A stretch of DNA of 32,000 bases, taken from positions 954-32,953 of the forward strand of contig JBAZRV010000008.1 of the NCBI GenBank assembly GCA_041662745.1. Reading direction: 5' to 3'. Shown piece by piece: positions 898 through 31,800 of the stretch (position 1 is its first letter; each line of letters opens with the position of its first letter). The notes beneath the pieces were generated by a model. That model ran no database searches, was not told the origin of the DNA, and saw nothing but the letters and a program-made list of their open reading frames with translations. The DNA comes from Patescibacteria group bacterium. GTDB lineage: Bacteria > Patescibacteriota > Patescibacteriia > 2-01-FULL-39-33. The position numbers were made by a program, and so were the translations under genes.

Positions 898-904
898 GCA
901 ATTC

Positions 905-933: not shown

Positions 934-969
934 TGCTTCCGTGCCTCGGCCGATTATCCGATCGGACCG

Positions 970-1104: not shown

Positions 1105-1115
1105 AACCGCTATGA

Positions 1116-2213: not shown

Positions 2214-2217
2214 AAGC

Positions 2218-3147: not shown

Positions 3148-3192
3148 AAAAATTCATTAATTTTAAGACCGCTGACTTATGGTACTGCTTAA

Positions 3193-15032: not shown

Positions 15033-15048
15033 ACCGCCTCAATGTCAT

Positions 15049-15249
15049 TTAATTAATCAGCTGACTTAACTGTCCGGCAACAGACATATGCTCTATCTCC
15101 TGATCGCGAATAAGCAGTACGGCATCACGTTCAAAAGGATCAGCTAAGCTTTCCAAGAATTCATCATAGAGATTCAAAGCTTGCTTTTCCAGGGCATACA
15201 ATTCAACAAAACTTTCAGCTAGCTCGGCTTTGCTTTTTTTTGTTTTCAT
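15049..15249 (-). CDS. 66-aa all-helical ORF, either independent or the frameshifted C-terminus of the double-PAS protein
   Basis: The ATG at 15249 lies inside the last 35 nt of the upstream ORF. The sequence is helical and acidic and contains EIEH. Confidence 0.45.
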   Translation of the reverse strand: MKTKKSKAELAESFVELYALEKQALNLYDEFLESLADPFERDAVLLIRDQEIEHMSVAGQLSQLIN

Positions 15250-16354: not shown

Positions 16355-16364
16355 AAGGAGGGGG

Positions 16365-16736
16365 TTACTTAATGCCCAATTTTTGCTGGACTTTAACGGC
16401 TACATCGGCGACATTCCAATCCACCTTGACCAAGTATTCAAAAGTTCCCAAGGCCACGGCTTGAGCGACCTTAGCTGAGTCGCTTAAATTACTCAAAATT
16501 ACCACTTCGGCTTTCTTGCCCCACCGATCCTTACGTAACTTGGCTAACATTTCCAAACCGTCCATCTTGGGCATTACCAAATCTAATAGAATTAAATCAG
16601 GTTTCTCTTTCTTGGCTAACCGTAAGCCCTCAACACCGTCTTTGGCAAGTAATACCTTAACCTGCCCGGCGTCAAATTGCGATGACAACGCCTTAAGCAC
16701 GATTGGTTCATCATCAATGATTAACAATTTTTTCAT
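16365..16736 (-). CDS. Stand-alone response regulator receiver (CheY-like, no output domain)
   Basis: 123 aa with the IIDDE acidic pocket, phospho-acceptor LLDLVMPKMDG, ILSNL and YLVK. Confidence 0.9.
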   Translation of the reverse strand: MKKLLIIDDEPIVLKALSSQFDAGQVKVLLAKDGVEGLRLAKKEKPDLILLDLVMPKMDGLEMLAKLRKDRWGKKAEVVILSNLSDSAKVAQAVALGTFEYLVKVDWNVADVAVKVQQKLGIK

Positions 16737-16770
16737 ATTGTATTTTAAATTTATAACCGTTTAACAATGA

Positions 16771-19746
16771 TTATTTAACGGGCAGGGTAAAATAGAAAGT
16801 TGTGCCCTTATTCTCTTTGGAATCAAACCAAATCCTGCCGCCATGCGCTTCAACTATGCCTCGGGCGATATACAGCCCCAAACCTGTGCCTTCCGGCGCC
16901 ACCCCCCTGATGTTATCCGCCCTGAAAAATCTCTCAAAAATACGATGTTGCTGATACTGCGGTATGCCATAACCCTGATCGGTAACGGCTATGGACCAAT
17001 AGTCCCCTTGGCGCTGGCAATCAAAAGTTATTTTAGCTTTATCGGGAGAATACTTAATGGCATTGCTAATCAAATTATTCAGCATTTGGACGATTTTATC
17101 AAAATCAAAAACACAAATAATTTTCCCGTTTAAACCGCAACCAAAAATCATGCTGATTTTCTTTTTATTGGCGGTTAACGTCTGATCTTCTATGGCGCGG
17201 CTAAGGGCTAAACGCAAATCGGCTGGTTTTTTGTTTAAGGTGAATTTTCTTCCCGTCTCAAGATGGGAAACGTCTAACAAATCATTAACCAACTTAATCA
17301 TTCGTTCATTGCTATGATAAATCTGCTCAACAAAATCACGTTGCTCCTGATTCAACTTGCCAATCTTCTCCTTTAACAGCAATTCGCCAAACCATTTAAT
17401 GCCGGTTAAAGGCGTCCGCAACTGATGTGAAGACATGGACACGAATTCTGATTTTAAACGATCAATTTCCTTGGCCTTGCTGATATCGCGCAAAATAGCC
17501 ATGTCGGCCGGTTGACCATTTAAAACAACAACTGAACTATTGGTTTCTACCGGTATGGCTTTGCCGTGCTTATCAATAACGGCGAATTCATAACGAGTAT
17601 CCACCCTCTCCCCCTGCATGCGACGCTTGTAATTGGAAGCGACCAGGCTCTTATATTGCGGAGCGATAAAATCAACCATGGGTTTGCCGATGACGTCTTG
17701 AGGAACCATGCCGGTAATCTTCTCTATGGCCGGATTGGCATATTTAACTATACCCCCCTGAATCAGTATAACGGCATCATTACTGCGTTCCACCAGGATA
17801 CTGTATCTTTCCTCCGATTGCTTGATTTCCCGTTCCCAGATCTTATGCTGAGTAATATCTTCAACAACTGTCAAAAAATATAGCGGCTTATCACTATTGT
17901 TTTTAATTAAAGTAGCGTTAACTCGGCCATAAACAATTTTTTTGTCTTTCCTGATATAACGTTTGTCCACGCTATAAACAGAAATCTTACCTTTAAGCAA
18001 CAATTTGACTTTTTCTATATCCCTTTTGACTTCATCGGGATGCGTAATATCGGCAAAGGTCAGCTTCTCAAGTTGGTCCTCGGAGTAACCCCAAAATTTA
18101 ACAGCAGCCGGATTAGCACTAATGAATTTATTATCCAAGCCGACCAAGACAATGGGTATCGGGCTGTTTTCATAAATCGCTCGCAGGCGATCTTCGCTGT
18201 TAACCAGCTTTGTTTCTGTTTGGTGACGCGCAGTAATATCGCGGATGTTGCACTGAACGACTTTGGTGCGGCCAATATTATAGACATTACTGACAAATTC
18301 CACGCTGATCGGCTTGCCGGACTTGGTTCTTAAAGGCAAATTATCATAATGGACATACTTCTTTTTCTTTAAAATTTCAAAAGATTTCTTGGAAGCCATT
18401 ATGTCCTTAAATAACCCGATTTCCCACAATTTCTTCTGTAAAAATTCGTCTCTTCCATAGCCCAGCATCTCAATTAAATACGGATTAACCTCTTCAATTT
18501 CTCCGGTCTCAACATTAAGAATCAAAATGCCGTCCTTGGCCGCTTCAAACAACCGACGATATTTCTGCTCTGACTTAACTAAACTTTTTTGGATTTTTGT
18601 ATCCTTAGTGACATCAGTGAAGCGCCAAACCCGGCCTACGATCTTACCGTCAATTTTTTGCGGTAAAGACAAACGATCAAAAACCCGGCCATCCTTAAAA
18701 TAAACAGTATCGGAACTTTTATTTGCCGGATGTTTATAAAGGTAGTTTACTTTGGTTAAAAATTCTTTGGCATCGGTAAGCTGGCTCACGACATAAGACA
18801 ACAGCTTCTTGTCATTCTTCGTCTTCGCTAATTTCTGGGGTATTTTCCATAACTCCAAAAATTTTTCATTATAAAATGACACTCTGCCCCGGCGATCAAT
18901 CACCAGGATGCCATCCGATGAAGTATTTGTGATTGAATCCAACAGGGAAACATAATTTTTTACGGTTATTTCATTTTTTTTAGTTTCGGTAATATCGCGG
19001 GAAAAACCCATGACATTGCTTATTCGGCCTGACTGATCCCTGACCGGCGTTAATTGCGTACTCAGCCAAACATCACCATGGGCAAAATGAGAAAGATCTT
19101 CCCGATAAGAGTGTTGACCGCTACGGAATACCTTATTAAGGTTAGCTTTTTGCCGTTTGGCCACGGCGGGCGGAAACAAATCCTTAACGCTTTTACCGAC
19201 AATGTGAATCGGCTGGGCATTAAACTGTTTGGCTCCGAATTCATTAACATAAGTTATCCGACCGCCCCTATCAACCAAGTAAATACTGTCATGAGCCATC
19301 TCAGCTAAGGTTTTATAAAGCACTTCGCTTTCTTTTTTTTCGGTAATATCGCGAAAAAAAGCGATTAAGCAATCGCGAGAATTAATCTTTATTCTGCCAA
19401 AGCCGGCAGAGACGAATTTAATTTTTCCCTTCTTGGTTATTATCTGCAAGTCCGCGCTTTTATCAAAACCCTTGCCTTTAGCCAATTGCGTAAAAACTTT
19501 TAGCGTTTTTTTAATGCTGTTTGCCGGATGCAAATGCCTGATGGACAACTTAAGCAATTCTTTTTTGGCATAACCGAATAAACGGCAGGCGGCCGGATTA
19601 GCATCAATGATCTTGGTTGACAAGTCAGCAATCACAATGGCATCAGCCGTGTTATTAAACAACATCCGATAATTATATTCGCCACCGGCCATCAGTTCGT
19701 CCGGGGTGGGGCAGGATTGTTTTTGATTAAAAATCAGCCAATTCAT
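16771..19746 (-). CDS. Cytoplasmic multi-PAS (about six PAS units) sensor histidine kinase
   Basis: Six repeats end in the characteristic DIT motifs: FRDITEKK, SRDITETK, FTDVTKD, IRDITARH, VEDITQHK and LRDISKAK. The H-box is EFVSMSSHQLRTPL. The ATPase motifs are DQGYGIP and GTGLGLYIAR. No TM helix is present. The track start at 19773 is TTG, and I prefer the ATG at 19746 (MNWLIF). Confidence 0.9.
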   Translation of the reverse strand: MNWLIFNQKQSCPTPDELMAGGEYNYRMLFNNTADAIVIADLSTKIIDANPAACRLFGYAKKELLKLSIRHLHPANSIKKTLKVFTQLAKGKGFDKSADLQIITKKGKIKFVSAGFGRIKINSRDCLIAFFRDITEKKESEVLYKTLAEMAHDSIYLVDRGGRITYVNEFGAKQFNAQPIHIVGKSVKDLFPPAVAKRQKANLNKVFRSGQHSYREDLSHFAHGDVWLSTQLTPVRDQSGRISNVMGFSRDITETKKNEITVKNYVSLLDSITNTSSDGILVIDRRGRVSFYNEKFLELWKIPQKLAKTKNDKKLLSYVVSQLTDAKEFLTKVNYLYKHPANKSSDTVYFKDGRVFDRLSLPQKIDGKIVGRVWRFTDVTKDTKIQKSLVKSEQKYRRLFEAAKDGILILNVETGEIEEVNPYLIEMLGYGRDEFLQKKLWEIGLFKDIMASKKSFEILKKKKYVHYDNLPLRTKSGKPISVEFVSNVYNIGRTKVVQCNIRDITARHQTETKLVNSEDRLRAIYENSPIPIVLVGLDNKFISANPAAVKFWGYSEDQLEKLTFADITHPDEVKRDIEKVKLLLKGKISVYSVDKRYIRKDKKIVYGRVNATLIKNNSDKPLYFLTVVEDITQHKIWEREIKQSEERYSILVERSNDAVILIQGGIVKYANPAIEKITGMVPQDVIGKPMVDFIAPQYKSLVASNYKRRMQGERVDTRYEFAVIDKHGKAIPVETNSSVVVLNGQPADMAILRDISKAKEIDRLKSEFVSMSSHQLRTPLTGIKWFGELLLKEKIGKLNQEQRDFVEQIYHSNERMIKLVNDLLDVSHLETGRKFTLNKKPADLRLALSRAIEDQTLTANKKKISMIFGCGLNGKIICVFDFDKIVQMLNNLISNAIKYSPDKAKITFDCQRQGDYWSIAVTDQGYGIPQYQQHRIFERFFRADNIRGVAPEGTGLGLYIARGIVEAHGGRIWFDSKENKGTTFYFTLPVK

Positions 19747-19769
19747 TATAATATCTAAATATTTATATT

Positions 19770-22700
19770 TCAAACATTAGCTGACTGCCTTTTTCTGACC
19801 CGATACAGCCAGAAAATGACAGCGACTAAGACAATTAAGGTTATAACTGTCGTCTGCCAGTTTAGATAACGATAAATCATTACCCAAAAGTTGCGCTTGA
19901 CCGTAAAGGTGCTGACCGGACTGGGACGGCTCTTGACCTGCGCCGTTGAATCCAGGGTAACGGCAAAAACAGTATGCTGGCCCGGGGCCAGTTCTGTTAT
20001 ATCTTGCGAGTGATCAATACGCCAATTGCCCTGACTGTCAGCGCGCGTACGATAAATCAAAGCCTGATCGCTATGAATATAAATGATAACATCCCGATTG
20101 GGCAAAGAGACGCCGGAGAAACTCAGAGTATCGCCCGTAACCACGGTCTGCACGTTGGTAACTTGCGGTACCGGGATGCCGGCCAATTCTACGGCTTGAG
20201 CGTTCAACTCCACCAACTCTGCCGTTGGAGTCGGTCCAGTGGGGATGGCGGCAGCGGTTATTGCCGGCACAGCCGGCGTCGGCAGAACCACGACCTTATT
20301 AACAGCCACACTGGCTGAATCGCTGGTGTTGCCGGCCTGATCGCGACTGACAGCGCCAATAATATGTTGGCCGTCAACCAGCGCCGAGGCGCTGGGCAAT
20401 CGGAAACTCCAAGCGCCGGACGAATCGGCGGTTACGGTAAAGCTGCTGCGGTTGTCTAAAGTGATAATCACCTCAACGAGCGGTTCAGCTACGCCGGTGA
20501 TTATTGGTGTCGCTTCAATTATGGCTGAATTATTAGCCGGATTTAAAATTATCGGAACCGCCGGCGCCACACTGGTAATTATCAGAACAACCGGATCAGA
20601 AACCTGGCTGATATTCCCCGTTCCGTCAGTCGCCCTGACCGTTAAGGAATGGTTGCCCGGTAAAAAATTAAAAACCTGATTGAATCGGCCGCCATTGTCG
20701 GTAGCATTGCTTAATTGAGCGAACAAAACTCCGTTGTCAAACAAGTCAATACGCGATCCCGGTTCAGCCAAACCGCCGATAATAGTTATTGTGTTGTTGG
20801 TCGGCGAGTCCAGCGGATTCAAAAGCGGCTTAACCGGCGCAGTCGTATCCGGCACCAAAATGGCACCACCGCCGACCACTGGCGGGATGACGGGCGGAAC
20901 AACCGGAGGAGTTACCGGAGCAAAGACGTTAAGCTGGGTAACCGTCGCTTCATTGCCGTAATCGTCTATGGCCCAAATCTTAACATAATAATTGTCAGTG
21001 ATATTCAAACCGGTGATGACCGTGGAGATGGCTAAGGGATTGGACAAGTTAGCATCGTTAACCACGCTCCATTTGCTGGCCGCGCCCGTGCGATTTATGA
21101 CATCGCTTTCCGTTGCGTCATGCCATAACTCGTAGTGATTGAAATTAGCATCGGTTGTCGCTTGCCAATTCACGGTAACAGTCGTGGCGGTTTCCGAAAA
21201 CTTGCTCAAAGAAGAAAGCCCCAAAGGCGCTCCCGTATCAACGGAAAAGTTAGCTGATTCATAATACGCGCTGGCATTGCCAAAACTGTCAGTGCCGCTA
21301 AAACGCACTCGCATATTGGAATTTTCTTGATTGATGAAATCCGCGCCGGCGTTCCAAATAATTGCTTTATTATTGCCCGCCGTTACCGTCCCCAAATCAC
21401 CGGTCGCAGCAACCTTAGTAACCGTCCAAGTCAAACCGCCGTCAGAAGAAATATCCCAAGCAACATCAGCAGTCTCGCCCAAATCATAGCTTATCGCAAC
21501 ATTGTCCGTGCCAATGGTTTGGCCGGCTGAGATGCCGGAGATAATCGGGGCCTTAGTATCCAAAGCAAAATTGCCGGAAGAGTCATAAGCGCCTTGATTG
21601 CCGAAATAATCTTTAGCGCGGACGCGAACTCTCACCGTCGACAGATCTTGACCGGTAAAATCCGTACCGGCGGCCCAAGTGAAGGTCTTAGTCCCGATAG
21701 TCTGGCCGGGACCGATTTGGCCGCTTCTGGTTGTCGTGGGCACCGTCCAAGTAATGCCGCCATCATCGGAAATGCTGAATTCAATCAGATTGCCGGCCGG
21801 CGTAATATCCGTTAAGTTATAATTTATAACCACATCGGTCGTGCCGGCCGATTGGCTGGCAGTAACGTCACTGACTGCCGGGCCTTTAGTGTCAATGGTA
21901 AAATTATCAGAAATAACGATTGAACCGACGTTGCCATAACGATCCGTGCCTTGGAGTTTTATTTTAACGGCAGAATTTTCTTGATTAGGCAGGTCAACTT
22001 GCGGATTCCAACTGATACTCTTGCCGGCGCCGGCCGTAACGTTACTGCCGATATCGCCAGTTGCCGTAGTAAGAGCGACGGTATAAGTTAAACCGCCGTC
22101 AGCGGAAATTAATAAGCTAACGGTGTTGCTGGCACCGGAATTATCAGATAAATCATAAGTGATTGCGGCCAAGCCCGTACCCGGAGCCTGCGTTAAATCA
22201 ATATTGGAAACAACCGGTCCCAGGGTATCCGCATAAAAAGCCGAGGAAGCCGCCAAATTACTGTCAGCCAAAGCATCCGAGGACTTCAAGCGCGCATAGA
22301 CCGTGGAATTCTCCTGATTGGGCAAATCAATCGCTATGTCCCAGGCAAAAACGTAAGCCGTACCGGCGGAAGCGAAAATTAGACTGGAAGTGCCGTTTGA
22401 ACCCACCCCTAATTTTTCGGTCATAGCCTGCCAGTTGACATTATCAATAGAATACTCAAAAACAGTTAAGTCATTAGTGTCATTTTGCGCGTCCGCGCCC
22501 GTATAATTGATTAATACGTAACCGCCGCTGGCCTGCTGAGCTGCGCTTGAGATATTAATTGAGGGGGCGGTATTAGCAATACCGGCCACTGTGGAAAAAT
22601 CGGATTCGGAAGAGACTGAATGCGCGGCATCACTCGGATTGCGGGATTTGATTTTAAAGCTATAGTTAGCCACCGGCGAACTCAAGCCATTAATGGTTAC

Positions 22701-24617
22701 TTGACCGCTGTTACCGCTGGTTTGGCCCCATTGGCCGATGCCGGTGCCCAGTGTCTGCCAAACCGCACTGGCGCCTAAGGTACCATTGCTTTGCACGTAT
22801 TGATCGGTGAAAACTTCATAAATGGCGTACGGCACATCACTGGCCTCGCCAAAAGCCGGATTGATCGTTACATCTACCGCAGTGTTCTGCGGATTATTAA
22901 CTGTGGGCGCTGAGGGCGTATATGGCTTGACATATTTATAACTCGCCGTAGGAGAGGTGTTCTCATTTATCCTGGCGTGGCCGTAATTATCGGTTTCTAT
23001 AATTTTAACCTTGGCAATATAGTCATGGCCGGTGAGCGTACCGCCAGCCGGTACGGCTTGGTTAGCCGGAGTCGCAGTATTACTTTCTCCCGTGGTGGTG
23101 GCCGAATAGGCGTTGCCGCTAAAAGCGACAAAAAACTCATTGGTAATCGGATTAGCCTCGGTAAACGACCCGCTGACAATCGCATCAGTGTCGCCGGCTT
23201 GCGGCTGAGCCGCCAAATCGGCAGTCGCCAAGATCGCCGGAGCCAGGGTGTCCACGCTAAAGACGCCGGCTAAAACGGCATACGCGCTGCTATTGCCATA
23301 GGTATTGGTGCCGCGAATGCGGACTTTCATATTGCTGTTTTGCTGGCTATTGAAATCCACTCCCGGATTCCAAGAAACCGTCTTACCAAGTCCCGGTGCG
23401 ACCCCATAACCGACAGCGCCAGTTAAGGTGGTGGTAACCACACTCCAAGTGACGCCGCCGTCATCGGAAATATCGACACTAATAACCACATTATCGCTAT
23501 CAAATAAATTGTAAGTTATAGTGACATTATCGGAACCGACAACCTGCGCCGCCGTTAGGCCATTAATCACTGGGGCTTGAGTGTTAACGGCAAACAGGTT
23601 GGAAGTGACATTGCCGGTCGCATTGGCGTAAGCGTCAACGGCTCGCAAGCGAACCTGCATATTATTAACCTGCTGATTGGGAAAATTCGCTCCAGCATCC
23701 CAAGTGATGATCTTACCGTTGCCGGTTGTTATGCCCGAGCCAATGGCGCCGCTAACGCTTGAAGAAGCGACATCCCAGGTACTGCCTCCGTCCGAGGATA
23801 TATCCATAGCCACAACAGAACTGTTAGCATCGCTAAAATCGTAACTTATGGACACTAAACTGCTACTGACGACCTGAGCCGCGGCAACATTGGCAAAAAC
23901 CGGGGCCTTGGTATCAACGGAAAAATCAGCAGATGAAACAAGCGTTCCGATATTGCCAAAATTATCCCTGGCTCCCGCTCGCACTCTGACCGTACCCGAT
24001 TCTTGGCCGGAGTAATCAACACCGGGATTCCAGTTGATAGCCTTGCCGCTGCCCGGCACGACATTATCTCGAACATCGCCGGAAGCCGTGGAAGTCGCGA
24101 CAGTCCAAGTTGATCCGCTGTCCGAAGAAACATCAAATTCCACATAAGAATCGGATAAATCGGTCAAATTATAACTTACGGATACATTATTTGAATCGGC
24201 ATCTTGGCTGGCGGTGACCGAGGCCGTTACGGGGTTTTTGGTGTCAATAATAAACGCCGCGGAAGCCGTTATGCCGCCACTGCTGGTGCCGTCGTTAGCC
24301 TGCAATCTGACAAAAACCGTCTCATCTTCGGTGTTAGGCAAATCCGCGCCCGCGTCCCACATAAAATCATGCGCGGTTCCGGAAGAAACAAAAGTTAAAT
24401 CGGTTTTTCCGTCCGAACCCACCCCCGTTTTCTCGGTCATAGCATGCCAAACGGCATTGTCAGTGGAATATTGATAAATGACCAGGGTAGTGGTTTCGCT
24501 TTCCAAATCCGAACCGGTATAATTGATAATCGCATACTTGGTGCCGTCGGCAGTCTGAGCAACCGAATCAATGGCAATGGTCGGCGACTGGTTGACTGAA
24601 GAGGCGCTGCTGGACAA
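19770..24617 (-). CDS. Giant surface protein, C-terminal portion
   Basis: 1615 codons. The contents are Asp-box beta-sandwich repeats, FN3-like modules, a Pro-rich linker, three Ig-like domains and a C-terminal TM anchor. The nominal start is an internal TTG with no signal peptide. The frame is open upstream to 24752 and continues the repeat pattern of the upstream ORF. Landmarks include six Asp-box modules (SSDGGSTW type), an FN3 (TVTVNWQ...YYVKIWAIDDYGNEA), PVTPPVVPPVIPPVV, three Ig-like units (G.H...A.D.AGN type) and the TM helix VITLIVLVAVIFWLY followed by RVRKRQ. Confidence 0.85.
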   Translation of the reverse strand: MSSSASSVNQSPTIAIDSVAQTADGTKYAIINYTGSDLESETTTLVIYQYSTDNAVWHAMTEKTGVGSDGKTDLTFVSSGTAHDFMWDAGADLPNTEDETVFVRLQANDGTSSGGITASAAFIIDTKNPVTASVTASQDADSNNVSVSYNLTDLSDSYVEFDVSSDSGSTWTVATSTASGDVRDNVVPGSGKAINWNPGVDYSGQESGTVRVRAGARDNFGNIGTLVSSADFSVDTKAPVFANVAAAQVVSSSLVSISYDFSDANSSVVAMDISSDGGSTWDVASSSVSGAIGSGITTGNGKIITWDAGANFPNQQVNNMQVRLRAVDAYANATGNVTSNLFAVNTQAPVINGLTAAQVVGSDNVTITYNLFDSDNVVISVDISDDGGVTWSVVTTTLTGAVGYGVAPGLGKTVSWNPGVDFNSQQNSNMKVRIRGTNTYGNSSAYAVLAGVFSVDTLAPAILATADLAAQPQAGDTDAIVSGSFTEANPITNEFFVAFSGNAYSATTTGESNTATPANQAVPAGGTLTGHDYIAKVKIIETDNYGHARINENTSPTASYKYVKPYTPSAPTVNNPQNTAVDVTINPAFGEASDVPYAIYEVFTDQYVQSNGTLGASAVWQTLGTGIGQWGQTSGNSGQVTINGLSSPVANYSFKIKSRNPSDAAHSVSSESDFSTVAGIANTAPSINISSAAQQASGGYVLINYTGADAQNDTNDLTVFEYSIDNVNWQAMTEKLGVGSNGTSSLIFASAGTAYVFAWDIAIDLPNQENSTVYARLKSSDALADSNLAASSAFYADTLGPVVSNIDLTQAPGTGLAAITYDLSDNSGASNTVSLLISADGGLTYTVALTTATGDIGSNVTAGAGKSISWNPQVDLPNQENSAVKIKLQGTDRYGNVGSIVISDNFTIDTKGPAVSDVTASQSAGTTDVVINYNLTDITPAGNLIEFSISDDGGITWTVPTTTRSGQIGPGQTIGTKTFTWAAGTDFTGQDLSTVRVRVRAKDYFGNQGAYDSSGNFALDTKAPIISGISAGQTIGTDNVAISYDLGETADVAWDISSDGGLTWTVTKVAATGDLGTVTAGNNKAIIWNAGADFINQENSNMRVRFSGTDSFGNASAYYESANFSVDTGAPLGLSSLSKFSETATTVTVNWQATTDANFNHYELWHDATESDVINRTGAASKWSVVNDANLSNPLAISTVITGLNITDNYYVKIWAIDDYGNEATVTQLNVFAPVTPPVVPPVIPPVVGGGAILVPDTTAPVKPLLNPLDSPTNNTITIIGGLAEPGSRIDLFDNGVLFAQLSNATDNGGRFNQVFNFLPGNHSLTVRATDGTGNISQVSDPVVLIITSVAPAVPIILNPANNSAIIEATPIITGVAEPLVEVIITLDNRSSFTVTADSSGAWSFRLPSASALVDGQHIIGAVSRDQAGNTSDSASVAVNKVVVLPTPAVPAITAAAIPTGPTPTAELVELNAQAVELAGIPVPQVTNVQTVVTGDTLSFSGVSLPNRDVIIYIHSDQALIYRTRADSQGNWRIDHSQDITELAPGQHTVFAVTLDSTAQVKSRPSPVSTFTVKRNFWVMIYRYLNWQTTVITLIVLVAVIFWLYRVRKRQSANV

Positions 24618-27600
24618 AGCGCTATCACTGGAAGCGGCATGGGCTCCATCACTGCTATTGCGCGATTTAACCTGGAATTGATAATGGTAGGAATCGAGGA
24701 TTAAACCGCTGATATTAACTTTGCCGGCTACGCCTGAATAAAATCCCCACTGAAAAAAAGCCGGTACCGCTCACCTGCCAAACAGGACTGGCGCCTAAAG
24801 TTCCGTCGCTCTGCACATATTTATTCTGGGAACCTTCATAAATCGCGTATTCCAAACCATCGGTTTCTGCCGGATTTTTATTGATTAAAACATCCACCGT
24901 GCCAACGCCGGGATTGTTAACGGTCGGCGCCGACGGCGTGTACGGCTTAACATACTTATAGGCTGAATTAGGCGAGCCATTCTCATTGGTTATAGTCTGG
25001 CCGTAATCATCCGTATGAGTGATTTTGACTTGGGAAATATAATCATTACCGTCCAAAGTGACGCCGACAACCGTAGCCTGATCGGCCGGCGAAGCGGTAT
25101 TGACGCTTCCGGCAGTGGCGGAACCGTAAGAACCGCCGTCAATCGCTACATAAAAATCATTGGTATTGGGGTTGGCCTCGGTAAAAGAACCGCCGATCAA
25201 TGTTGTTGTTGCTCCGGCCAAAGGCTGGGCTGACAAATTAGCTATGACGCTAACGGCCGGCGGCAGAGTATCAAGAGAAAAATCGGCTGAAGGCACATTG
25301 GCCGATTGATTGGCAAAAATATCCAAAGCCCTGACCCGCGCTTGCATCGTACTTAAATTTTGATCGGGAAAATCAACGGCCGCATTCCAGGTGACGGTTT
25401 TGCCCGTTCCCGGGGTTATGTTGGCGCCGATCTCACCACTTAGGGTTGAGGTGGCCACTAACCAAGTTGACCCGCTATTGTTAGAAATATCCAATATTAC
25501 CAAAGAATTGTTCTGATCGGCTAAATCATAAGTAATTGTTACGCTTGTTCCGCCCAAAGGTTGCGTGGCTGAAACATTGGTTAGGCGCGGGGACTTAGTG
25601 TCCAAAGAAAAATCAGAAGAGGCTAAAGCGCTATTATTGCTAAAACTGTCGGTCGCGGTCAAACGGAATTGCATGTTAGTCTTTTCCTGATCATTATAAT
25701 CGGCGCCAGCGTCCCAAGTGATGGTTTTGCCGGATCCGGGTATGACTGCTACGCCCAAATCGCCAGTTGCCGAAGAGGTGGCCACAGTCCAAGTTGATCC
25801 CCCGTCGGCGGAAACAGCCAATAATAGATTAGCATTGCCGGCGTCTTCGGAAACATCATAATGAAAAGTAAAAGTATTGGCATTGCCGTCTTGGCCGGCG
25901 GAAAGATTAGACAATACCGGCGCATGCGTATCAACGGTAAAGATTGCGGAACCGCTATAAGATCCCTGATTGCCAAAGCTGTCCCGAGCTCTAACCCGCA
26001 CCAGGACATTGGTATTATATTGATTGTCATAATCAGCTCCGGCATTCCAAGCAACGCTTTTGCCAACGCCCGGCGTTACCCCTGAACCGACGGCGCCGGT
26101 TAAGCTTGAGGTGGCGACAGTCCAGGTTGACCCGCCATCGCCGGAAATATCTATCTGAATCAAAGAGCTGTTAGCGTCGGTTAAATTATAAGTTATGGCC
26201 ACGGTTCTGGCGCCGGCGTTTTGGCTGGCGGTTACATCCGAGACAACCGGAGCCTTGTTATCCAAAGAAAAATTCGCCGAAGCGACTAAACTGCCGTCAG
26301 TCAAGGTGTCGTTTCCTCTTAAACGAATCTTGGCTGTGGTTGTTTCCAAGCTCGGTAAATCCGCGCCCGAATCCCAAACAAAACTATAAGCGCTGCCGGT
26401 CGGCAAAAATATCAGATTAGCCGTGCCATTACTGCCTGCGCCGGACTTCTCTGTCATGGCCTGCCAACTGGAGCCGTCAACGGAATACTCGTAAGCGGAT
26501 AAATAAGTAACATCGCCCTGGCCATCCGTACCCGTATAAGCAATGGGGCTGTACTGCGAGCCGTCTGTTGTTTGGGCATAACTGTCTAAAACAATGCCGG
26601 GGGCGGTATTGGTGATTTGCGCCGTAGCGGAAAAAGCCGAGTCCGAAGACGCCGCATGGCCGGCATCACTGGGGTTGCGCGACTTAACCTTAAAAATATA
26701 ATTAGCCACCGGCGAAGATAAGCCGGTTATTCTGACCGTACCGGCCGAACCGGTATTATTGCCCCATTGGCCGGAACCGGTGCCGATAATCTGCCAAACC
26801 GGGCTGACGCCTAAAGTGCCGTCGCTCTGCACATATTTGGAAGTCGTGGTTTCAAATAGAGCGTATTGCACATCACCGGCTTCGCCGGCGTGCGAATTAA
26901 TTGTCAAATCCAAACGCGTGGTAACGGGATTGCTCAAGGTCGGGGCTGACGGCGTATAAGGCTTAACATACTTATAAATGGAATTCGGAGTTAAATTTTC
27001 ATTAACTCCCAGGTTGAAGTAATCATCGGTATGAACAATCTTAACCTGAGAAATATAATCATTGCCGTCCAAAGTGGCGCCGACAGCCGTGGCAAGATTA
27101 GACGGAGTAGCCGTATCACTGTCGCCGGCCGTAGATGAGCTGTAACCGCCTCCGTCAATCGCCACATAAAAATGATTGGCATCGGGATTAACCTCGGTAA
27201 ACGATCCGCCGATTAAAACCGCAGTGTCGCCGGCGTTGGGTTGAGCTTGCAAATCAGCCGCGGTTAATGTCGCTGCCGGCAAAGTATCCAAAGAAAAATT
27301 AGCCGAGGCGGAATAAACGCCCTGGTTCTGCCACTTGTCCTTGGCCCGGATGCGCACTCGCATATTGCTTTTCTGTTGGTTGGGATAATCCGCGCCGGCA
27401 GTCCAATAAATTGTCTTGCCATTGCCGGCCGTTACTCCCGCGCCGACAGCGCCGCTAACGCCGGTTGCCGGTACCGTCCAAGTATCTCCGTCATCGCCCG
27501 ATATTTGCATCTCTACCAAAATATTATCGGCGGTATCATCAAATAAATCATAAGTGACGGCCACTGTCGTTGTGCCCAAGGGTTGAGTGGCTAAAACATT

Positions 27601-27966
27601 GGAAACGGTGGAAGAAACATAATCAACGGTGAAAACGGAGGAAGTGGCATAAATGCCATTGCCGATGCCGTCATTAGGCCGTAAACGAACATAAGTGGTG
27701 GTAACGACGTCGCCCAATTGCGAACGGGCGTCCCAAACGAAAGTGTGGGGCGTACCGCCGGAAGAAGCGGGCAAGCCGGAAACTCCGCTATGGGCCGGAT
27801 CGGTGGTGGAGGCGGTCATAGTCACCGCGTCGGCAAAGGTGCCGGATAAGGAATACTCATAAGCCGTCAAACTGGATATATCGTCTTCCGCGTCTTGCAA
27901 ATTATAATTGACATGGACATAACCATAAGTTGTGTCTTGCGCCGGCGCCACAGATTGCACCTGGGG
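21234..27966 (-). repeat. Intragenic coding repeat array of ~110-aa modules nested in a ~2-kb super-repeat
   Basis: There are ten Asp-box modules following the pattern DTxAPv...Y.L.D.....isxDGGxTW.V.....G..G..v..G.GK.i.W.ag.D...Q....m.vR.r..D..gN. There are four copies of an SxDxxxW variant module (YEYS.D...W.AMTEK.G.GS.G). There are three copies of a YKYVKPYTPSAPT / FN3-like block. Approximate super-repeat boundaries are 26617-27966, 24590-26616, 22569-24587 and 21234-22568. The copies are clearly diverged at the DNA level. Confidence 0.85.
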
Positions 27967-29316
27967 TCGCTGATTTTGCGTGTAAGTAATGGTGATATTA
28001 TCCAAAATCACCTGCTGAGTGCCATCGCTCGACAAGTAAGCGCGCCATTTTATTTGATTGGTAGAAGTGGTGAATTTAGAAATATTGGCGTTAACATCGG
28101 TTGCTGTATTATAATCAGTCGTTAAGGTGGTGGTCGCCCAAGCTGAGCCGTTGTAATATTGCCAATTAGACCCGTCATCAGCTGACAATTGATAATAAAT
28201 TTCTCCGCCGTTTTTAGTCGCTGTTTCCACGAAAGAATTCCAACTTACCGTCTTGAGCATCGTCAATGAGGCGACTGGAGTAGTTGTTGGCTTATCGGAA
28301 GCATAAGCATGAGTGGTTTTCGACCAATCCAACTGGATATTGTCAAAACCAACCGTATAAGGACCAATATTAGAACCGCCGGTTTCCAGCCAAACAGCTA
28401 ACTTAAGATAATAAGTGCCAATAGCCGTTACCTTGGAAGAAACATCCAAATTGCTGACCGAAGTCCAACCTTGGGTAGCGGTTATTTCTCCCGACGACCA
28501 GACCTCTTGGCCGATAGTCGGCGCGCCGGTGCCAGTATCAATAAAAGCGTAAACCTTAAAGGTTATGGGCGGATTGGGAGTAGAATCATAAGCTGTAACA
28601 TGATAATCAAAACTTACAGTTGCTGTCGGATCGGTAACAGTGGTGGTAAAGCCCTGCCGCCAATAACCGCCTAATTCATCATCTTTGCCGGACGGCGCGC
28701 TGATATTTACCCAGCCGCCGGGATTGCCGCCAGTCGTAATCCTAGCTCCGGTAATATTAACCTCGCCCCCTCCCTGGCCCCAATCGGCATAAGTCCAACC
28801 GGTGGTATCGCTGTCAAAACCGGGGTTGGTGATGTTGCCACTATCGGTCGTACCATTATCTTTTAATTGAGCTACCCCGCCGGTTACCTCAATTTTGGCA
28901 GGGTCATAAGTGTAATCGCCGGCGTTGTCAAAAGTCCAATCCTGCGTGTCGGCCAAAATCTGAATTGCGCCCAAAAAAATAAAAGATAAGATGCCGACGA
29001 CCAAAATTTTCAAAACAAACAGGCCTCCCGCGCCGCCTGCAGTGGCCAAACTGATGCGCCGCCTGACGGTGTAAACCCGCAGAGGCTTAACGGCTTTCTG
29101 CCGGCTGGGAAAAATCATTCCTTGCTCTTGCAATCGGTCCGGCGGAACCAACAGGTACATGGGCAAGGAGACAACGGCAAACACGACTTCTATCGCCAAT
29201 AATTCTACGGCTAAAGGCAGGACTCTGTACCATTGTCCGGTTTTAACGACTTTTTGACGCAAACCGAAAACATAGCCGGAATAAGAAAAAAATAGATTTA
29301 GCCAGCGCTTAGACAT
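24715..29316 (-). CDS. Giant surface protein, N-terminal portion
   Basis: The contents are an N-terminal membrane module, a CBM-like head and Asp-box repeat modules. The ATG at 29316 (MSKRWLNL) is preferred over the track TTG at 29376, because it starts 2 nt after the upstream stop and aligns with MKNKWLNL of the neighbouring paralog. There are two hydrophobic segments, an NPGFDSDTTGW jelly-roll-like region and four Asp-box modules. The ORF ends in out-of-frame residues (FSVGILFRRSRQS) right after a T7 run. Confidence 0.85.
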   Translation of the reverse strand: MSKRWLNLFFSYSGYVFGLRQKVVKTGQWYRVLPLAVELLAIEVVFAVVSLPMYLLVPPDRLQEQGMIFPSRQKAVKPLRVYTVRRRISLATAGGAGGLFVLKILVVGILSFIFLGAIQILADTQDWTFDNAGDYTYDPAKIEVTGGVAQLKDNGTTDSGNITNPGFDSDTTGWTYADWGQGGGEVNITGARITTGGNPGGWVNISAPSGKDDELGGYWRQGFTTTVTDPTATVSFDYHVTAYDSTPNPPITFKVYAFIDTGTGAPTIGQEVWSSGEITATQGWTSVSNLDVSSKVTAIGTYYLKLAVWLETGGSNIGPYTVGFDNIQLDWSKTTHAYASDKPTTTPVASLTMLKTVSWNSFVETATKNGGEIYYQLSADDGSNWQYYNGSAWATTTLTTDYNTATDVNANISKFTTSTNQIKWRAYLSSDGTQQVILDNITITYTQNQRPQVQSVAPAQDTTYGYVHVNYNLQDAEDDISSLTAYEYSLSGTFADAVTMTASTTDPAHSGVSGLPASSGGTPHTFVWDARSQLGDVVTTTYVRLRPNDGIGNGIYATSSVFTVDYVSSTVSNVLATQPLGTTTVAVTYDLFDDTADNILVEMQISGDDGDTWTVPATGVSGAVGAGVTAGNGKTIYWTAGADYPNQQKSNMRVRIRAKDKWQNQGVYSASANFSLDTLPAATLTAADLQAQPNAGDTAVLIGGSFTEVNPDANHFYVAIDGGGYSSSTAGDSDTATPSNLATAVGATLDGNDYISQVKIVHTDDYFNLGVNENLTPNSIYKYVKPYTPSAPTLSNPVTTRLDLTINSHAGEAGDVQYALFETTTSKYVQSDGTLGVSPVWQIIGTGSGQWGNNTGSAGTVRITGLSSPVANYIFKVKSRNPSDAGHAASSDSAFSATAQITNTAPGIVLDSYAQTTDGSQYSPIAYTGTDGQGDVTYLSAYEYSVDGSSWQAMTEKSGAGSNGTANLIFLPTGSAYSFVWDSGADLPSLETTTAKIRLRGNDTLTDGSLVASANFSLDNKAPVVSDVTASQNAGARTVAITYNLTDANSSLIQIDISGDGGSTWTVATSSLTGAVGSGVTPGVGKSVAWNAGADYDNQYNTNVLVRVRARDSFGNQGSYSGSAIFTVDTHAPVLSNLSAGQDGNANTFTFHYDVSEDAGNANLLLAVSADGGSTWTVATSSATGDLGVAVIPGSGKTITWDAGADYNDQEKTNMQFRLTATDSFSNNSALASSDFSLDTKSPRLTNVSATQPLGGTSVTITYDLADQNNSLVILDISNNSGSTWLVATSTLSGEIGANITPGTGKTVTWNAAVDFPDQNLSTMQARVRALDIFANQSANVPSADFSLDTLPPAVSVIANLSAQPLAGATTTLIGGSFTEANPNTNDFYVAIDGGSYGSATAGSVNTASPADQATVVGVTLDGNDYISQVKITHTDDYGQTITNENGSPNSAYKYVKPYTPSAPTVNNPGVGTVDVLINKNPAETDGLEYAIYEGSQNKYVQSDGTLGASPVWQVSGTGFFSVGILFRRSRQS
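24753..24759 (-). other. 7-nt homopolymer (T7 on the coding strand) causing the frameshift that splits the giant gene
   Basis: With T6 the reading is ...WQVSGTGFFQWGFYSGVAGKVNISGLILDSYHYQFQVKSRNSSDGAHAASSDSALSSSASSVNQSPTIAID. This reproduces the motif series GTGxGQWG / ANYxFKxKSRNPSD / SSxSxFS seen in the two other copies. Confidence 0.85.
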
Positions 29317-29318
29317 AG

Positions 29319-30140
29319 CTAAAGAGTTAATATGGTTAAGAAAATTCCTAATAAGATGATAATAATCACCGACCAATTGGCCAAGGAATCAATATTCTTG
29401 GCGATTAAATCAAACCAAGTGGAAGTTACTTTGAAATATTGGGTCGGCGCAGTCTCGCTCCTGGTCCCCTGCTGTTGATTGTAACTAAAAACCAGCACCG
29501 AATGATTGCCCTCGCTTAAACGAAAATTGCTTTGCAGTTGTTCTATCCGCCAGTTGCCGGCTGAATCCGCATCGGCCGTATAAACCGCCGTCTGCTGATC
29601 CGACAACAATAAAACAACCGTAGCCAGCGGTTGTCCAACGCCTGAGAAGACGTAATTGCCTCCCCTGATTTTTTTGACTTGTCGCAATTCCGGCCTCGCC
29701 ATAGTGTTTACTACGCGAGCCGTCTGGATTCCCGTATCAGCGGCCACCAATTCCTGTTGCGTAATGTCGGCCGGCTGTAAATCGCCTACCGAATAAAGTT
29801 GCAAGGGACCGAAAACGGTCGGTGTCAAAACAATAATCAATAATTTTGCCAGCCAAACCAAAGCGATAACGCCAACGCCGGTAACTGTTAGGATGCGGCG
29901 TAAATTATAATCAAAATTCACTTGGGCATAAGACCCTTGGTCGGCGAAATAAGCCGTAACGTCGCGAGACTTCAAGGTCAGATATAACGGAAGAGAGGTC
30001 ACGGCTAAAAATATCTCCCAGAAAAAAAGTAGGAAAATATTATAAACTGCCTCCAACCCAGTTTGCCCTACGATAAGTTGTTTGCGATTATAGATGCGGT
30101 TGGTTAAAAGCAATACGAGATTTAACCATTTATTCTTCAT
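29319..30140 (-). CDS. 273-aa membrane protein, a miniature paralog of the giant protein
   Basis: It consists of the N-terminal membrane module, one Ig-like domain and the C-terminal TM anchor. MKNKWLNL, AVTSLPLYL and LRRILTVTGVGVIALVWL align with MSKRWLNL, AVVSLPMYL and VRRRISLATAGGAGGLFVL of the giant. FSGVGQP...SDQ...ADSAGNWRIEQ...EGNHSV...YFKVTS...ANWSVIIIILLGIF aligns with the giant C-terminus FSGVSLP...SDQ...ADSQGNWRIDH...PGQHTV...TFTVKR...LNWQTTVITLIVLV. Confidence 0.8.
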   Translation of the reverse strand: MKNKWLNLVLLLTNRIYNRKQLIVGQTGLEAVYNIFLLFFWEIFLAVTSLPLYLTLKSRDVTAYFADQGSYAQVNFDYNLRRILTVTGVGVIALVWLAKLLIIVLTPTVFGPLQLYSVGDLQPADITQQELVAADTGIQTARVVNTMARPELRQVKKIRGGNYVFSGVGQPLATVVLLLSDQQTAVYTADADSAGNWRIEQLQSNFRLSEGNHSVLVFSYNQQQGTRSETAPTQYFKVTSTWFDLIAKNIDSLANWSVIIIILLGIFLTILTL

Positions 30141-30152: not shown

Positions 30153-30536
30153 TTAAGTGCTTAAAATTTTCTCAACCTTGTCTTTTAAGACGGATAAGTC
30201 CGTATCAGCCTTAATAAAATAATCCCTGGCGCCCAAATCCTTGGCTTTCTTAATATCTTCTTCATCGCCCAAATTAGACAAAACGATTACCGGCGTGGCT
30301 CGTAAATTAGTATTGGCCTTAATATTCTTAAGAAACTCAAAACCGTTCATTTTCGGCAATAACAGATCAAGCAAAACAACATTCGGCTTGGTTCTTTCCG
30401 CCATGTGCAGGGCGGTTTCACCGTCAGTGGCGGTAGCGATAGTAAAGCCGCCTTCATGAAAAACCAGATACAGCGCTCTTAATAGAATTTCATCGTCTTC
30501 AACTATCAAAACTATTTTTGTTCCTTCTTTCGCCAT
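30153..30536 (-). CDS. Stand-alone response regulator receiver
   Basis: 127 aa with LIVEDDE, VLLDLLLPKMNG, VLSNL and YFIKAD. There is no output domain. Confidence 0.9.
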   Translation of the reverse strand: MAKEGTKIVLIVEDDEILLRALYLVFHEGGFTIATATDGETALHMAERTKPNVVLLDLLLPKMNGFEFLKNIKANTNLRATPVIVLSNLGDEEDIKKAKDLGARDYFIKADTDLSVLKDKVEKILST

Positions 30537-30539: not shown

Positions 30540-30959
30540 TTAATCTTTTAACGACTTTTTAATATAATCGATGATTTTTTTCATCTCCGTATTGGCTTTA
30601 ATGAAATATTCTTCGGCGCCCAAGGCCTTAACCGATTTAACATCGCCAATCTCGTCAAGATTTGACAGGACGACAACGGGGATATTTTTTACTTTGTCAT
30701 CGGCCTTCAACTCCTTAAGCACCGTAAAACCGTCAATGCCGGGAATAACCAAATCCAACAAAATCAGCTGAGGTAAGAATTTTTTGACCATGGCGACGGC
30801 ATCATTGCCGTTATCCACCACCATGACCTCAAAGCCTTCGTTTTTTAAGCTTTCTGCCAACACTTTGGATAACAAAGAATCATCCTCCACAACCAGGACT
30901 TTTCGGGGTTGTTTTTTGGATTGACCTTTCTCTCCAAGGCCAAAAATGGTTTTTAGCAT
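30540..30959 (-). CDS. Stand-alone response regulator receiver
   Basis: 139 aa with LVVEDDS, ILLDLVIPGIDG, VLSNL and YFIKAN. There is no output domain. A 3-nt gap separates it from the next receiver gene. Confidence 0.9.
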   Translation of the reverse strand: MLKTIFGLGEKGQSKKQPRKVLVVEDDSLLSKVLAESLKNEGFEVMVVDNGNDAVAMVKKFLPQLILLDLVIPGIDGFTVLKELKADDKVKNIPVVVLSNLDEIGDVKSVKALGAEEYFIKANTEMKKIIDYIKKSLKD

Positions 30960-30987: not shown

Positions 30988-31800
30988 TTAAATATAGTAT
31001 ACCACAATATTATACCATAAACAAAATAAATGCGCATCAAGCGCGCTTGATTGGCTAAACAATTTAATAAAGTTAAAAACAAGCCGCTTAATCGCGACTT
31101 GCCGGTTTTCTTTGGGCCAAAATCTGTTCCTCAGCTTAATATAGGCGTTTAACGCTCTGTCCGGCCCGTTTAAATCATCCAAAAACAATTTCCTGATCCA
31201 GGCCAAATCAATCTCGCCGCGCAAATACTTGGCATAAATCCTATCAGCCAAGCCATAACCCTGCTGATAGATAAAGAATTCCTCAAAATCAAGATCCTGG
31301 CCAAGCGTTTTAAGCAATATCCGCCGAATATCTTCTTTGGCTTTGCCGTTTAACAGTAGTAAATCGGGCAAATGTTCATACAGATTCTCCCAATCACTGC
31401 CCAATAGCCTGGCGCCTAACATTCCCAGCAATTCCACCAATACGCCCAAAGCCATATAATCCTTAACATTTCTTCTTTTATTTCCCACCTTGTAAGAAAC
31501 GCCGGAAGACAAAAAATGGAAAGCGTGCGAAGATTCCTCCAGAATAGAATGATTGGTTGACTTAGGGCCGATGATTATTATTTGTTGTTTCAACAGATAA
31601 TAACTTAGACCGCTGGCTATTCTAATTGCAAATTCTTCTTCTAAGGACCTGGGTAATGCCAGATCATTAAACTTGACAGTTTTGCCAATCCACCAAACCT
31701 CGGGGTAACAGCTTAACTCAATTGACAAAATTTCAGACAATTCCGAAAGCGCATCATAAACCAGTTCCTCAATCTGAGCCTGCCTGTCTCGCCATCTCAT
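30988..31800 (-). CDS. Hypothetical protein, first gene of the cluster
   Basis: 270-aa ORF with an ATG start. It is preceded by AGGGAGGGAGGG (31820-31809), 8 nt upstream of the start. I recognise no family. It contains the ExxHxxH-like string EESSHAFH. Confidence 0.65.
   Translation of the reverse strand: MRWRDRQAQIEELVYDALSELSEILSIELSCYPEVWWIGKTVKFNDLALPRSLEEEFAIRIASGLSYYLLKQQIIIIGPKSTNHSILEESSHAFHFLSSGVSYKVGNKRRNVKDYMALGVLVELLGMLGARLLGSDWENLYEHLPDLLLLNGKAKEDIRRILLKTLGQDLDFEEFFIYQQGYGLADRIYAKYLRGEIDLAWIRKLFLDDLNGPDRALNAYIKLRNRFWPKENRQVAIKRLVFNFIKLFSQSSALDAHLFCLWYNIVVYYI
30996..31017 (-). promoter_or_regulatory. Tandem extended -10-like elements (TGGTATAAT, 4 nt, TGGTATACT)
   Basis: On the minus strand, TGGTATAAT sits at 31017-31009 and TGGTATACT at 31004-30996. 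Both lie in the last codons of the 270-aa ORF, about 40-55 nt upstream of the first receiver ATG. Motif match only. Confidence 0.35.

Follow-up and report, generated by a model that had tools for sequence, protein, structure and literature searches.

A giant Ig-repeat protein and its miniature paralogue share terminal modules of a predicted membrane scaffold and are encoded next to CheY-like receivers in Patescibacteria

Introduction

Giant surface proteins built of immunoglobulin (Ig)-like repeats are already known, and the gene pair described here has to be compared with them. The pair comprises a 273-residue protein, the mini, and a giant of 3,181 residues encoded directly after it, and it lies on a 32,000-nucleotide stretch from a Patescibacteria group bacterium (contig JBAZRV010000008.1, positions 954 to 32,953), called the window throughout. 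Fibrillar adhesins of the Staphylococcus aureus Ebh type have, as is predicted for this giant, an N-terminal export signal, a head, a β-sandwich stalk and a C-terminal helix followed by a basic tail. They differ in three respects: the export signal here would be the last helix of a conserved two-helix module of ~120 residues and not a short or YSIRK-type peptide, a mini paralogue and CheY-like receivers accompany the giant, and no LPXTG motif is present. The type I secreted proteins LapA, SiiE and MpIBP share the Ig-like repeat fold, as seen in Foldseek matches to SiiE and MpIBP and in sequence hits to Big_13 and Ca_tandemer, but here there are no RTX repeats and no type I secretion genes, and the predicted anchor is a membrane helix. 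Organisms of the Patescibacteria type are not known to have an outer membrane. The LapA/LapD/LapG system is also alike in that retention of a giant adhesin at the cell surface depends on a signal from the cytoplasm, as is proposed here, with CheY-like receivers instead of a c-di-GMP receptor and a protease.

Two further comparisons concern the N-terminus and the gene layout. The motifs ESPR (type V secretion), YSIRK and KxYKxGKxW are likewise conserved at the extreme N-terminus, before the signal helix of large exported proteins. The module described here differs from these families in having no sequence match to them, in containing an extra hydrophobic helix with a buried glutamate, and in occurring also on small proteins and alone. 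In the S-layer pair of Sulfolobus, the genes of the large outer SlaA and of its small membrane-bound partner SlaB are neighbours; the likeness is one of layout only, as the two proteins are not paralogues, share no termini and have no receivers in their operon. Full-text literature searches returned no description of a mini/giant pair or of the receiver cassette. Unlike giant Ig-repeat proteins as such, a scaffold common to both sets of termini, a mini paralogue as obligate companion and a link to receivers are not well known.

Results

Two proteins with homologous ends

All the genes around the mini and the giant are on the minus strand in the window's list of open reading frames (ORFs), and only 2 nt separate the mini stop codon from the giant start. 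An earlier note, made from the letters of the DNA alone, had described a 273-residue ORF ending at 29319 with the giant ATG at 29316, and had matched the ends of the two proteins by eye; the coordinates were borne out and each motif string that it quoted was found in the sequences. The features are the following.

29319-30140, minus strand: mini gene, an ORF of 273 residues comprising N-module, linker helix, single Ig-like domain and C-terminal helix
29319-29321, minus strand: TAG stop codon of the mini
19770-29316, minus strand: giant gene, ATG at 29316, 3,181 residues after frameshift repair
24753-24759, minus strand: run of seven T (A7 on the plus strand) containing a surplus base that splits the giant
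29805-30140, minus strand: mini N-module, residues 1-112, from alignments and residue counts over 266 modules
28951-29316, minus strand: giant N-module, residues 1-122, ending G-A-I-Q-I-L-A, with a predicted signal-peptidase I site at Ala122/Asp123
29421-29693, minus strand: mini Ig-like β-sandwich, residues 150-240, homologous to the Ig domain that comes last, and nearest the membrane, in the giant
29322-29390, minus strand: mini C-terminal anchor, residues 251-273, D-x-x-L-A-N-W and a helix to the last residue, with no basic tail
19773-20186, minus strand: giant C-module, the last 138 residues, with the last Big_13-like Ig domain, Y-L-N-W-Q-T-T, a helix and the tail Y-R-V-R-K-R-Q-S-A-N-V

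The similarity seen by eye is significant at both ends by BLASTP, shuffling and hidden Markov models (HMMs). At the N-terminus, BLASTP gave 32% identity over 56 residues (E=6e-4), and a Smith-Waterman alignment of the first ~110 residues scored 79 against 29 ± 5 for 3,000 shuffles (z=10, with 0/3,000 reaching 79), an outcome that was unchanged when shuffling was done in 20-residue blocks with the hydrophobic segments kept in place. Positions 1-108 of an HMM built from 112 mini homologues only aligned, at 25-36 bits, with residues 1 to ~113 in six giants, which come from different organisms, and an HMM built from the six giants only matched minis in 37 loci at 26-53 bits. These two models are the independent tests of homology; the N-module profile used for the wide search described below included two giant sequences, and its giant hits are partly by construction. 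At the C-terminus, 28% identity over 116 residues (BLASTP, E=2e-12) spans the last Ig-like domain of the giant and continues into the final helix, and the mini HMM matched the last ~125 residues of every complete giant at 54-61 bits. The preceding Ig copy of the giant is clearly more distant from the mini domain (9e-6, 34.7 bits, against 55.5 bits for the last copy), and the copies ahead of the last reach at most 12 bits with the mini HMM, so that the unit shared at this end consists of the last Ig domain, a short helix and the membrane helix. The last 35 residues alone are not significant in the window pair (z=2.1), and a (D..)L-N motif precedes the C-terminal helix in both minis and giants across the family. 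Nothing of the giant's middle, of roughly 2,900 residues, is found in the mini.

The view of the mini as a paralogue of its neighbour is upheld in part, as it is a paralogue but neither a recent nor a local one: the N-modules of minis and giants are only ~22-29% identical, compared with 53-89% among close mini homologues and ~21-30% for distant minis. On the alignments, the two are ancient paralogues in separate clades, built on one predicted membrane scaffold.

The giant, taken in the earlier note as a single open gene, is in fact present in the window as two ORFs, 24715-29376 (1,553 residues) and 19770-24617 (1,615 residues), a split that the note did not mention. Past the T7 run the unrepaired frame reads '...GTGFFSVGILFRRSRQS' up to a stop. 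Removal of one T restores the repeat pattern 'GTGFFQWG...FQVKSRNSSD' and gives 3,181 residues with a single stop. In the close relative L001, whose mini is 89% identical, the giant is an uninterrupted 3,181-residue protein with GGT TTT TTT CAA in frame at this place. The extra T could be an assembly error, a fresh mutation or an on/off switch of the homopolymer type.

A conserved cassette with two receivers

The second feature absent from the earlier note is an invariable link to CheY-like receivers, encoded upstream of the mini, and a histidine kinase gene lies directly downstream of the giant.

30540-30959, minus strand: RR1, a 139-residue single-domain CheY-like receiver, first gene of the cassette (PF00072, 78.1 bits)
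30153-30536, minus strand: RR2, a 127-residue single-domain CheY-like receiver, directly upstream of the mini (PF00072, 86.1 bits)
16771-19773, minus strand: soluble multi-PAS (five-PAS) histidine kinase of 1,000 residues (Pfam)

Both RR1 and RR2 score far above the PF00072 cut-off of 30.2 bits and have no DNA-binding part, and the receiver residues E-D-D, L-L-D-L, L-S-N-L and F-I-K are present in 6/6 aligned orthologues of each.

The window mini is 100% identical to a protein from a Patescibacteria metagenome-assembled genome and has more than 200 homologues, nearly all of 273 residues, with 51-89% identity among the 120 listed; the close ones come from Buchanan-, Magasanik-, Uhr- and Falkowbacteria and from unnamed Patescibacteria. 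The order RR-RR-mini-giant occurs in five independent contexts with unrelated flanks, where the giants have 3,181, 3,178, 2,140 (after correction of a miscalled start), 4,078 and 4,674 residues. A scan of one genome per species gave 39 loci, the mini-alignment profile recovering close relatives only. RR1-RR2 stood upstream of the mini in 37/37 loci having upstream sequence, and a giant N-module followed it in all but two of those having enough sequence downstream. The gap between mini and giant is mostly below 25 nt at the other loci, and this short spacing suggests that the two are co-expressed. The kinase downstream of the giant is frequent, being found also in L001, L006, L009 and L050, and not universal.

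In one of the two exceptions (L037 3820-4700), RR1-RR2-mini is followed by unrelated small ORFs, with no giant N-module within 3 kb downstream. In the other (L043 3001-4700; OW818634.1, a complete chromosome of 895,742 bp), the mini is cut short at about residue 219, from where its frame leads on into the C-terminal half of a PAS kinase; this looks like a deletion that took the end of the mini, the whole giant and the start of the kinase, with RR1 and RR2 intact.

Some loci show peculiarities of annotation or content. At L006 10822-10945 the annotated start of the giant is too far downstream, and a start 32 codons upstream restores M-S-G-R-W-L-N-L. Two Buchananbacteria loci (L039 1258-2011 and L041 1285-2070) carry two extra receivers upstream of RR1-RR2, four in a row. 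Eight third-party annotation (TPA) records (L015, L019, L021, L030, L032-L035) labelled 'uncultured Gammaproteobacteria bacterium' contain the full Patescibacteria-type cassette; the labels are probably wrong.

The neighbourhood was found to be conserved also when the N-module was searched for in other genomes. The wide profile search yielded 180 representatives of 50% clusters at E<=1e-3 among 1.84 billion, each matched from residue 1. Full-length members fall into two size classes, minis of 255-285 residues and giants of about 900-5,686 residues. Shorter forms, some of which may be incomplete genes, consist of the N-module alone (111-115 residues; P0146, P0162, P0170, P0188, P0207, P0210, P0225, P0237) or of the N-module and a giant-type C-terminal anchor with no cargo (141-172 residues; P0161, P0172), and two relatives of 231-235 residues (P0139, P0142) have tandem N-modules with an extra helix in between. 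The idea, raised in the earlier note, of an ancestral scaffold into which repeats were inserted is consistent with the cargo-less forms, which in themselves give no direction of evolution.

The gene order differs in the distant loci L009, L049 and L050, where the giant (826+, 1,410 and 1,459 residues) is divergent from a single receiver and the mini; a MASE6-type kinase lies beyond the giant in two of the three. At L008 (ENA contig_309449), a receiver, a mini and a giant, in this order, stand beside genes for an E1 dehydrogenase, GntR, URO-D and a short-chain dehydrogenase, and the other genes of this contig are unlike those of Patescibacteria; receiver and giant are in pieces there, spread over several ORFs, which long-read errors probably explain. 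The mini of L008 shares a 90% cluster with a protein labelled Ca. Humimicrobiaceae (Actinomycetota), a label taken from a 1.8-kb contig. A spread of the family beyond Patescibacteria is likely, if weakly supported, and the gene content at L008 agrees with it. None of ten contexts inspected contains type I secretion genes, and conservation around the pair does not extend to any transporter, sortase or protease gene.

The N-module and its predicted topology

From its N-terminus, the module consists of a basic helix, H1, with W-L-N, a hydrophobic helix with Glu42 and S-L-P-x-Y, a basic loop with Arg81-Arg82, and helix 2 with Lys99.

29976-30056, minus strand: mini hydrophobic helix 1, residues 29-55, with the near-invariant Glu42 (hydropathy)
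29823-29891, minus strand: mini helix 2, predicted membrane-spanning, residues 84-106, followed by P-x-V-[YF]-G-P and no A-x-A site (hydropathy, alignment)

Over 266 N-modules, Pro51 is present in all 266 and Glu42 in 265, followed by Lys20 and Arg81 (254 each), Ser49 and Tyr53 (250 each), Arg82 (248), Lys99 (241) and Trp5 (233). Even the wider set of minis of 255-285 residues, at 21-30% identity, keeps Pro51, Arg81, Gly167, Gly195 and Asn255. Sequence searches gave no Pfam, NCBIfam or Protein Data Bank (PDB) family match for the module. Its fixed place at residue 1, its near-invariant residues and its conserved neighbourhood mark it as a dedicated unit, as the earlier note had supposed, and not as a generic signal-anchor.

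The AlphaFold 2 (AF2) model of the mini has a mean predicted local distance difference test (pLDDT) of 76. It contains helices at residues 2-24, 29-55, 58-68 (short) and 70-110 (long), a disordered stretch, a helix at 125-140, a β-sandwich at 151-238 and two last helices at 242-248 and 250-272. The linker helix motif G-I-Q-T-A-R and P-x-V-Y-G-P are conserved stretches specific to minis.

Hydropathy gives three hydrophobic segments in both mini and giant, at ~29-55, at ~84-106 and at the C-terminus. Lysine plus arginine residues number about 5 in the 28 residues of the N-tail and 5-6 in the about 27 residues of the loop between the hydrophobic helices, compared with 0.6-0.9 in the 15 residues past helix 2, about 4 in the giant C-tail and 0.06 in the mini C-tail. 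By the positive-inside rule, these counts would place the N-tail, the loop and the giant tail in the cytoplasm and the cargo outside. With the N-tail and the loop both cytoplasmic, the first hydrophobic helix could not fully cross the membrane, and it is probably embedded there without spanning it. The same parity argument follows from the two relatives with tandem N-modules, in which three hydrophobic segments lie between the two H1 helices, inverted repeats being the alternative.

Asparagine, glutamate and lysine within membrane helices promote helix association. A simple salt bridge between Glu42 and Lys99 was considered and rejected, as covariation gives it no support: Glu is kept in 265/266 modules even where Lys is replaced (about 20 cases). 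An architecture like that of the inward-rectifier K+ channel KirBac (slide helix, two helices, Ig domain), which was among the Foldseek hits, was also rejected: the root mean square deviations (rmsd) are 26-28 Å and the TM-scores 0.19-0.20, there is no T-x-G-[YF]-G filter motif, and the loop is rich in Lys/Arg.

A cleavage-like site in giants and two kinds of C-terminal end

Helix 2 of the giants ends in G-x-Q-x-L-L-A and is followed by (D/A)-T-Q-D-W-x-F...Y-x-Y-D..K-I-E, which gives the N-module a signal-like layout: Arg-Arg-Arg, a hydrophobic stretch, G-x-Q, and L-L-A before D/A. For a count of the residues at the putative site, 54/65 giant N-termini were anchored on the conserved Trp, of which 3 look mis-anchored. 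Position -1 (five before Trp) is Ala in 48, Ser in 3, Gly in 2 and Thr in 1 of the 54, and position -3 (seven before Trp) is Leu, Ile, Ala or Val in 52/54; distant giants read A-H-A, A-K-A, A-Q-A and A-Y-A at the same point. As far as sequence can tell, this is the A-x-A-like pattern of signal peptidase I. In minis the corresponding stretch reads P-x-V-[YF]-G-P, and proline at +1 after a small residue blocks signal peptidase I. The giant would therefore be cut after Ala122 and the mini would remain uncut.

The C-terminal ends are also class-specific. Among 46 diverse minis, Asn255, where the last helix begins, never varies and Asp251 hardly does; giants have (L/F)(N/D)(L/W)xTT at the position of Asn255. 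Minis stop at the helix, and giants add the tail with about 4 Lys/Arg. A motif scan of mini and giant agreed with the earlier note that LPXTG, PEP-CTERM and lipobox signals are lacking: LP.T[GASN] occurs nowhere in either protein, although the giant does have a helix and a basic tail; there is no PEP, PGF or GG in the last 45-60 residues of either, and no NCBIfam signal model matched; and a lipobox is ruled out by the lack of any cysteine in the two. Neither protein matched the ESPR or YSIRK Pfam models at E<=0.1 or contains the RTX motif GG.G.D.

The cargo

Between the shared ends, the giant comprises, after the N-module, a carbohydrate-binding module (CBM)-like head, a long Ig-like stalk and three Big_13/Ca_tandemer-like domains, which are followed by the C-terminal helix and the basic tail.

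27877-28950, minus strand: giant ectodomain head, residues 123-480, jelly-roll CBM/MAM-like β-sandwiches (AF2 mean pLDDT 84)

Foldseek matches of the head, to CBM61, CBM4, MAM, reelin repeats and the Epf adhesin, are weak (E about 1e-4 to 1e-3). The stalk, of about 2,500 residues, is made of repeated units of ~95-110 residues, many of which carry an Asp-box-like S-x-D-x-G-x-T-W; nine such motifs were found. The predicted architecture follows the usual plan of a fibrillar adhesin, with the head at what would be the free N-terminus, then the stalk, and the anchor at the C-terminus.

The mini has a single Ig-like domain, with strands between residues 151 and 238 modelled at pLDDT 84-90 and with Foldseek matches to Bap, SiiE, MpIBP and FN3 (rmsd 3.0-4.7 Å over about 92-109 columns), in agreement with an Ig-like fold. 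Against Big_13 (PF19077, gathering cut-off 27 bits) the mini scores 17.3 bits, below the cut-off, and the C-terminal half of the giant 42.3 bits, above it; 3/46 diverse minis match, weakly. Through its homology to the last copy in the giant, the mini domain is by transitivity a divergent member of Big_13. Mini and giant contain 0 cysteines in 3,454 residues, where 23 would be expected from the 0.67% in 18 other window ORFs, and a location of the cargo outside the cell fits both the domain types and this total lack. The L006 giant has 8 cysteines, in C-x-x-x-x-C-like pairs.

The window giant aligns with the giant of an Uhrbacteria locus (L003 10845-20381) in a single segment, 1-3181 on 1-3178, at 53.5% identity, close to the 55.6% of the minis, and this end-to-end identity, unusually even for a repeat protein of such length, indicates constraint along the full length of the giant in the Uhrbacteria-window lineage. 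Elsewhere its length changes by repeat blocks (L006). P0154 (1,264 residues) has the same N- and C-modules with a different cargo that sets in straight after the conserved start and contains many G-D-I-Y-A-I-x-Y-S-G-x-G-x-D-G-F repeats, beta-propeller-like in appearance.

Other genes of the window

Downstream of the giant, 12657-19773 is a dense signalling cluster of two kinases, a third receiver and a PAS-only protein. In addition to the multi-PAS kinase it contains the following.

16365-16736, minus strand: third single-domain receiver, 123 residues
15215-16354, minus strand: PAS-only protein with a coiled C-terminus, 379 residues
12657-15032, minus strand: Cache-HAMP-PAS kinase, 791 residues

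A 270-residue ORF without a Pfam match lies at 30988-31800, upstream of RR1; L001 has a 250-residue ORF without Pfam hits at the same place, and more distant relatives do not. The remaining window genes are housekeeping ones: DnaE, an HtrA-like protease, QueH, NUDIX and MgsA.

Discussion

We propose that the giant is a fibrillar adhesin linked to the receivers and that the conserved mini, built on the same membrane scaffold, is its partner, a reading that we put forward with middling confidence, its chances standing about level. The scaffold would be the N-module of ~110 residues together with the C-module (membrane-proximal Ig domain, L-N motif and final membrane helix), with the cargo in between, ranging from none in some relatives through one Ig domain in the mini to 900 to over 5,500 residues in giants. 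Helix 2 of the giant would act as its signal sequence, and cleavage at the A-x-A-like site would free the CBM-like head on a stalk of about 28 β-sandwich domains, as estimated from length, while the C-terminal helix and basic tail would hold the stalk in the membrane. The mini, uncleavable owing to the proline after the equivalent position, would remain as an invariant membrane base and may, in line with the co-assembling partner considered in the earlier note, pair with the homologous anchor parts of the giant, helix to helix through Asn, Glu and Lys and Ig to Ig. Single-domain receivers of the CheY type work by binding target proteins; phosphorylated RR1 and RR2, with the multi-PAS histidine kinase as the likely phosphodonor, may act on the basic cytoplasmic face of the mini, so that display or activity of the fibre would be set from inside. 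This would resemble the inside-out signalling of integrins, in which paired membrane proteins with large ectodomains are set by a cytoplasmic protein that binds their short tails; the analogy is one of logic, with no homology. Strong constraint on the mini is evident from its more than 200 homologues, its near-fixed length of 273 residues and its kept residues, and the adjacency or divergent pairing that is maintained across very distant lineages, in two gene orders, argues for a functional link between mini and giant.

Among the alternatives, the one that survives best, although we think it unlikely, is a dedicated sorting system, in which the N-module is a leader and the C-terminus a sorting signal read by an export or processing machine, with mini and giant as two substrates that need not touch. 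The module always stands at residue 1, an A-x-A-like site follows helix 2 in giants, the motif-helix-basic tail of the giant C-terminus has the layout of sortase and exosortase signals, and ESPR, YSIRK and KxYKxGKxW provide a precedent on very large surface proteins. However, only receivers, and often a kinase, are conserved near the pair, with no gene for a transporter, sortase or protease; neither the cleavage pattern nor the basic tail occurs in minis; a pure leader would have nothing to deliver in the N-module-alone, tandem and cargo-less proteins; and the mini is too conserved in length and sequence for a mere second substrate. The earlier suggestion of a conserved export module and C-terminal anchor serving two cargoes is accurate as to the shared homologous modules, but 'export module' is too simple a term, as no transporter or sortase is conserved nearby and the signal-peptidase-like site is confined to giants.

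The giant might instead be a structural component of the envelope, a surface-layer or spacer protein with the mini as its membrane stalk, comparable to SlaA and SlaB, and two-component control would then set only expression or assembly. This we consider rather improbable. It would suit the 53.5% end-to-end identity and the near-equal lengths of 3,181 and 3,178 residues across candidate phyla, the fixed length of the mini and the single copy in a fixed position in each of the loci inspected. The range of giant lengths, from about 900 to 5,686 residues through gain and loss of repeat blocks, nevertheless fits a fibre better than a lattice, and the quite different cargo of P0154, the loss of the giant in two genomes and the resemblance of the head to carbohydrate-binding modules also speak against an envelope role.

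We give still less credence to mini and giant being paralogues that share ancestry and regulation and act separately, the mini as a short-range surface protein or sensor and the common termini as a mode of membrane insertion. The two clades are old and separate (22-29% identity), with no sign of gene conversion, and each keeps its class-specific features; yet co-oriented adjacency or divergent pairing persists in very distant lineages and two gene orders, and the polar residues within the helices are conserved in both classes. A last possibility, that the mini arose by decay from a giant that had lost its interior, or that its ORF was miscalled, can be dismissed even though the mini consists of the giant's two ends with nothing between: it has over 200 homologues that are intact and equal in length, numerous invariant positions, some of them mini-specific, and a confidently predicted fold.

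Several observations weigh against the receiver-linked adhesin that we favour. As to the predicted topology, if helix 1 does span the membrane, either the N-tail or the loop violates the positive-inside rule. Leu, allowed at -3 but not ideal, occupies that position in most close giants, and the hydrophobic stretch ahead of the A-x-A-like site is long for a cleaved signal. End-to-end identity of 53% between giants of different candidate phyla is not what is usually seen in an adhesin that binds hosts, and it may indicate a structural role in the envelope instead. The loss of the giant and of part of the mini in L043, and the absence of a giant after the mini in L037, mean that the set is dispensable, or that partners can be encoded apart. 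Finally, receivers could be syntenic with the pair because of a shared regulation that concerns something else.

A stronger form of the proposal, which we offer as speculation and think unlikely, is that the N-module and C-terminal helix form a new type of membrane scaffold on which CheY-like receivers directly control a giant fibre at the protein level, as a counterpart in bacteria to inside-out signalling, with the mini as an obligate signalling subunit and the near-invariant buried Glu as a switch or a proton- or ion-coupled element. The whole would then serve one large branch of Patescibacteria, and some other single-membrane bacteria, as their core device for contact with hosts.

Patescibacteria are ultra-small, have tiny genomes and are thought to depend on other organisms, and how they sense and grip cells is largely unknown. 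The giant takes up about 1% of a genome of ~1 Mb (in the close relative L001, 9.5 kb on a contig of 958 kb), the order of the gene set is kept across many candidate phyla, and the giant appears to be wired to two-component signalling in which the output proteins lack a DNA-binding domain. As an unannotated membrane module, the N-module could become a new entry in family databases, with which further systems of this type could be detected, and the mini, unlike the giant, is small enough for structural and interaction work. The locus thus provides a concrete candidate for regulated surface attachment in Patescibacteria.

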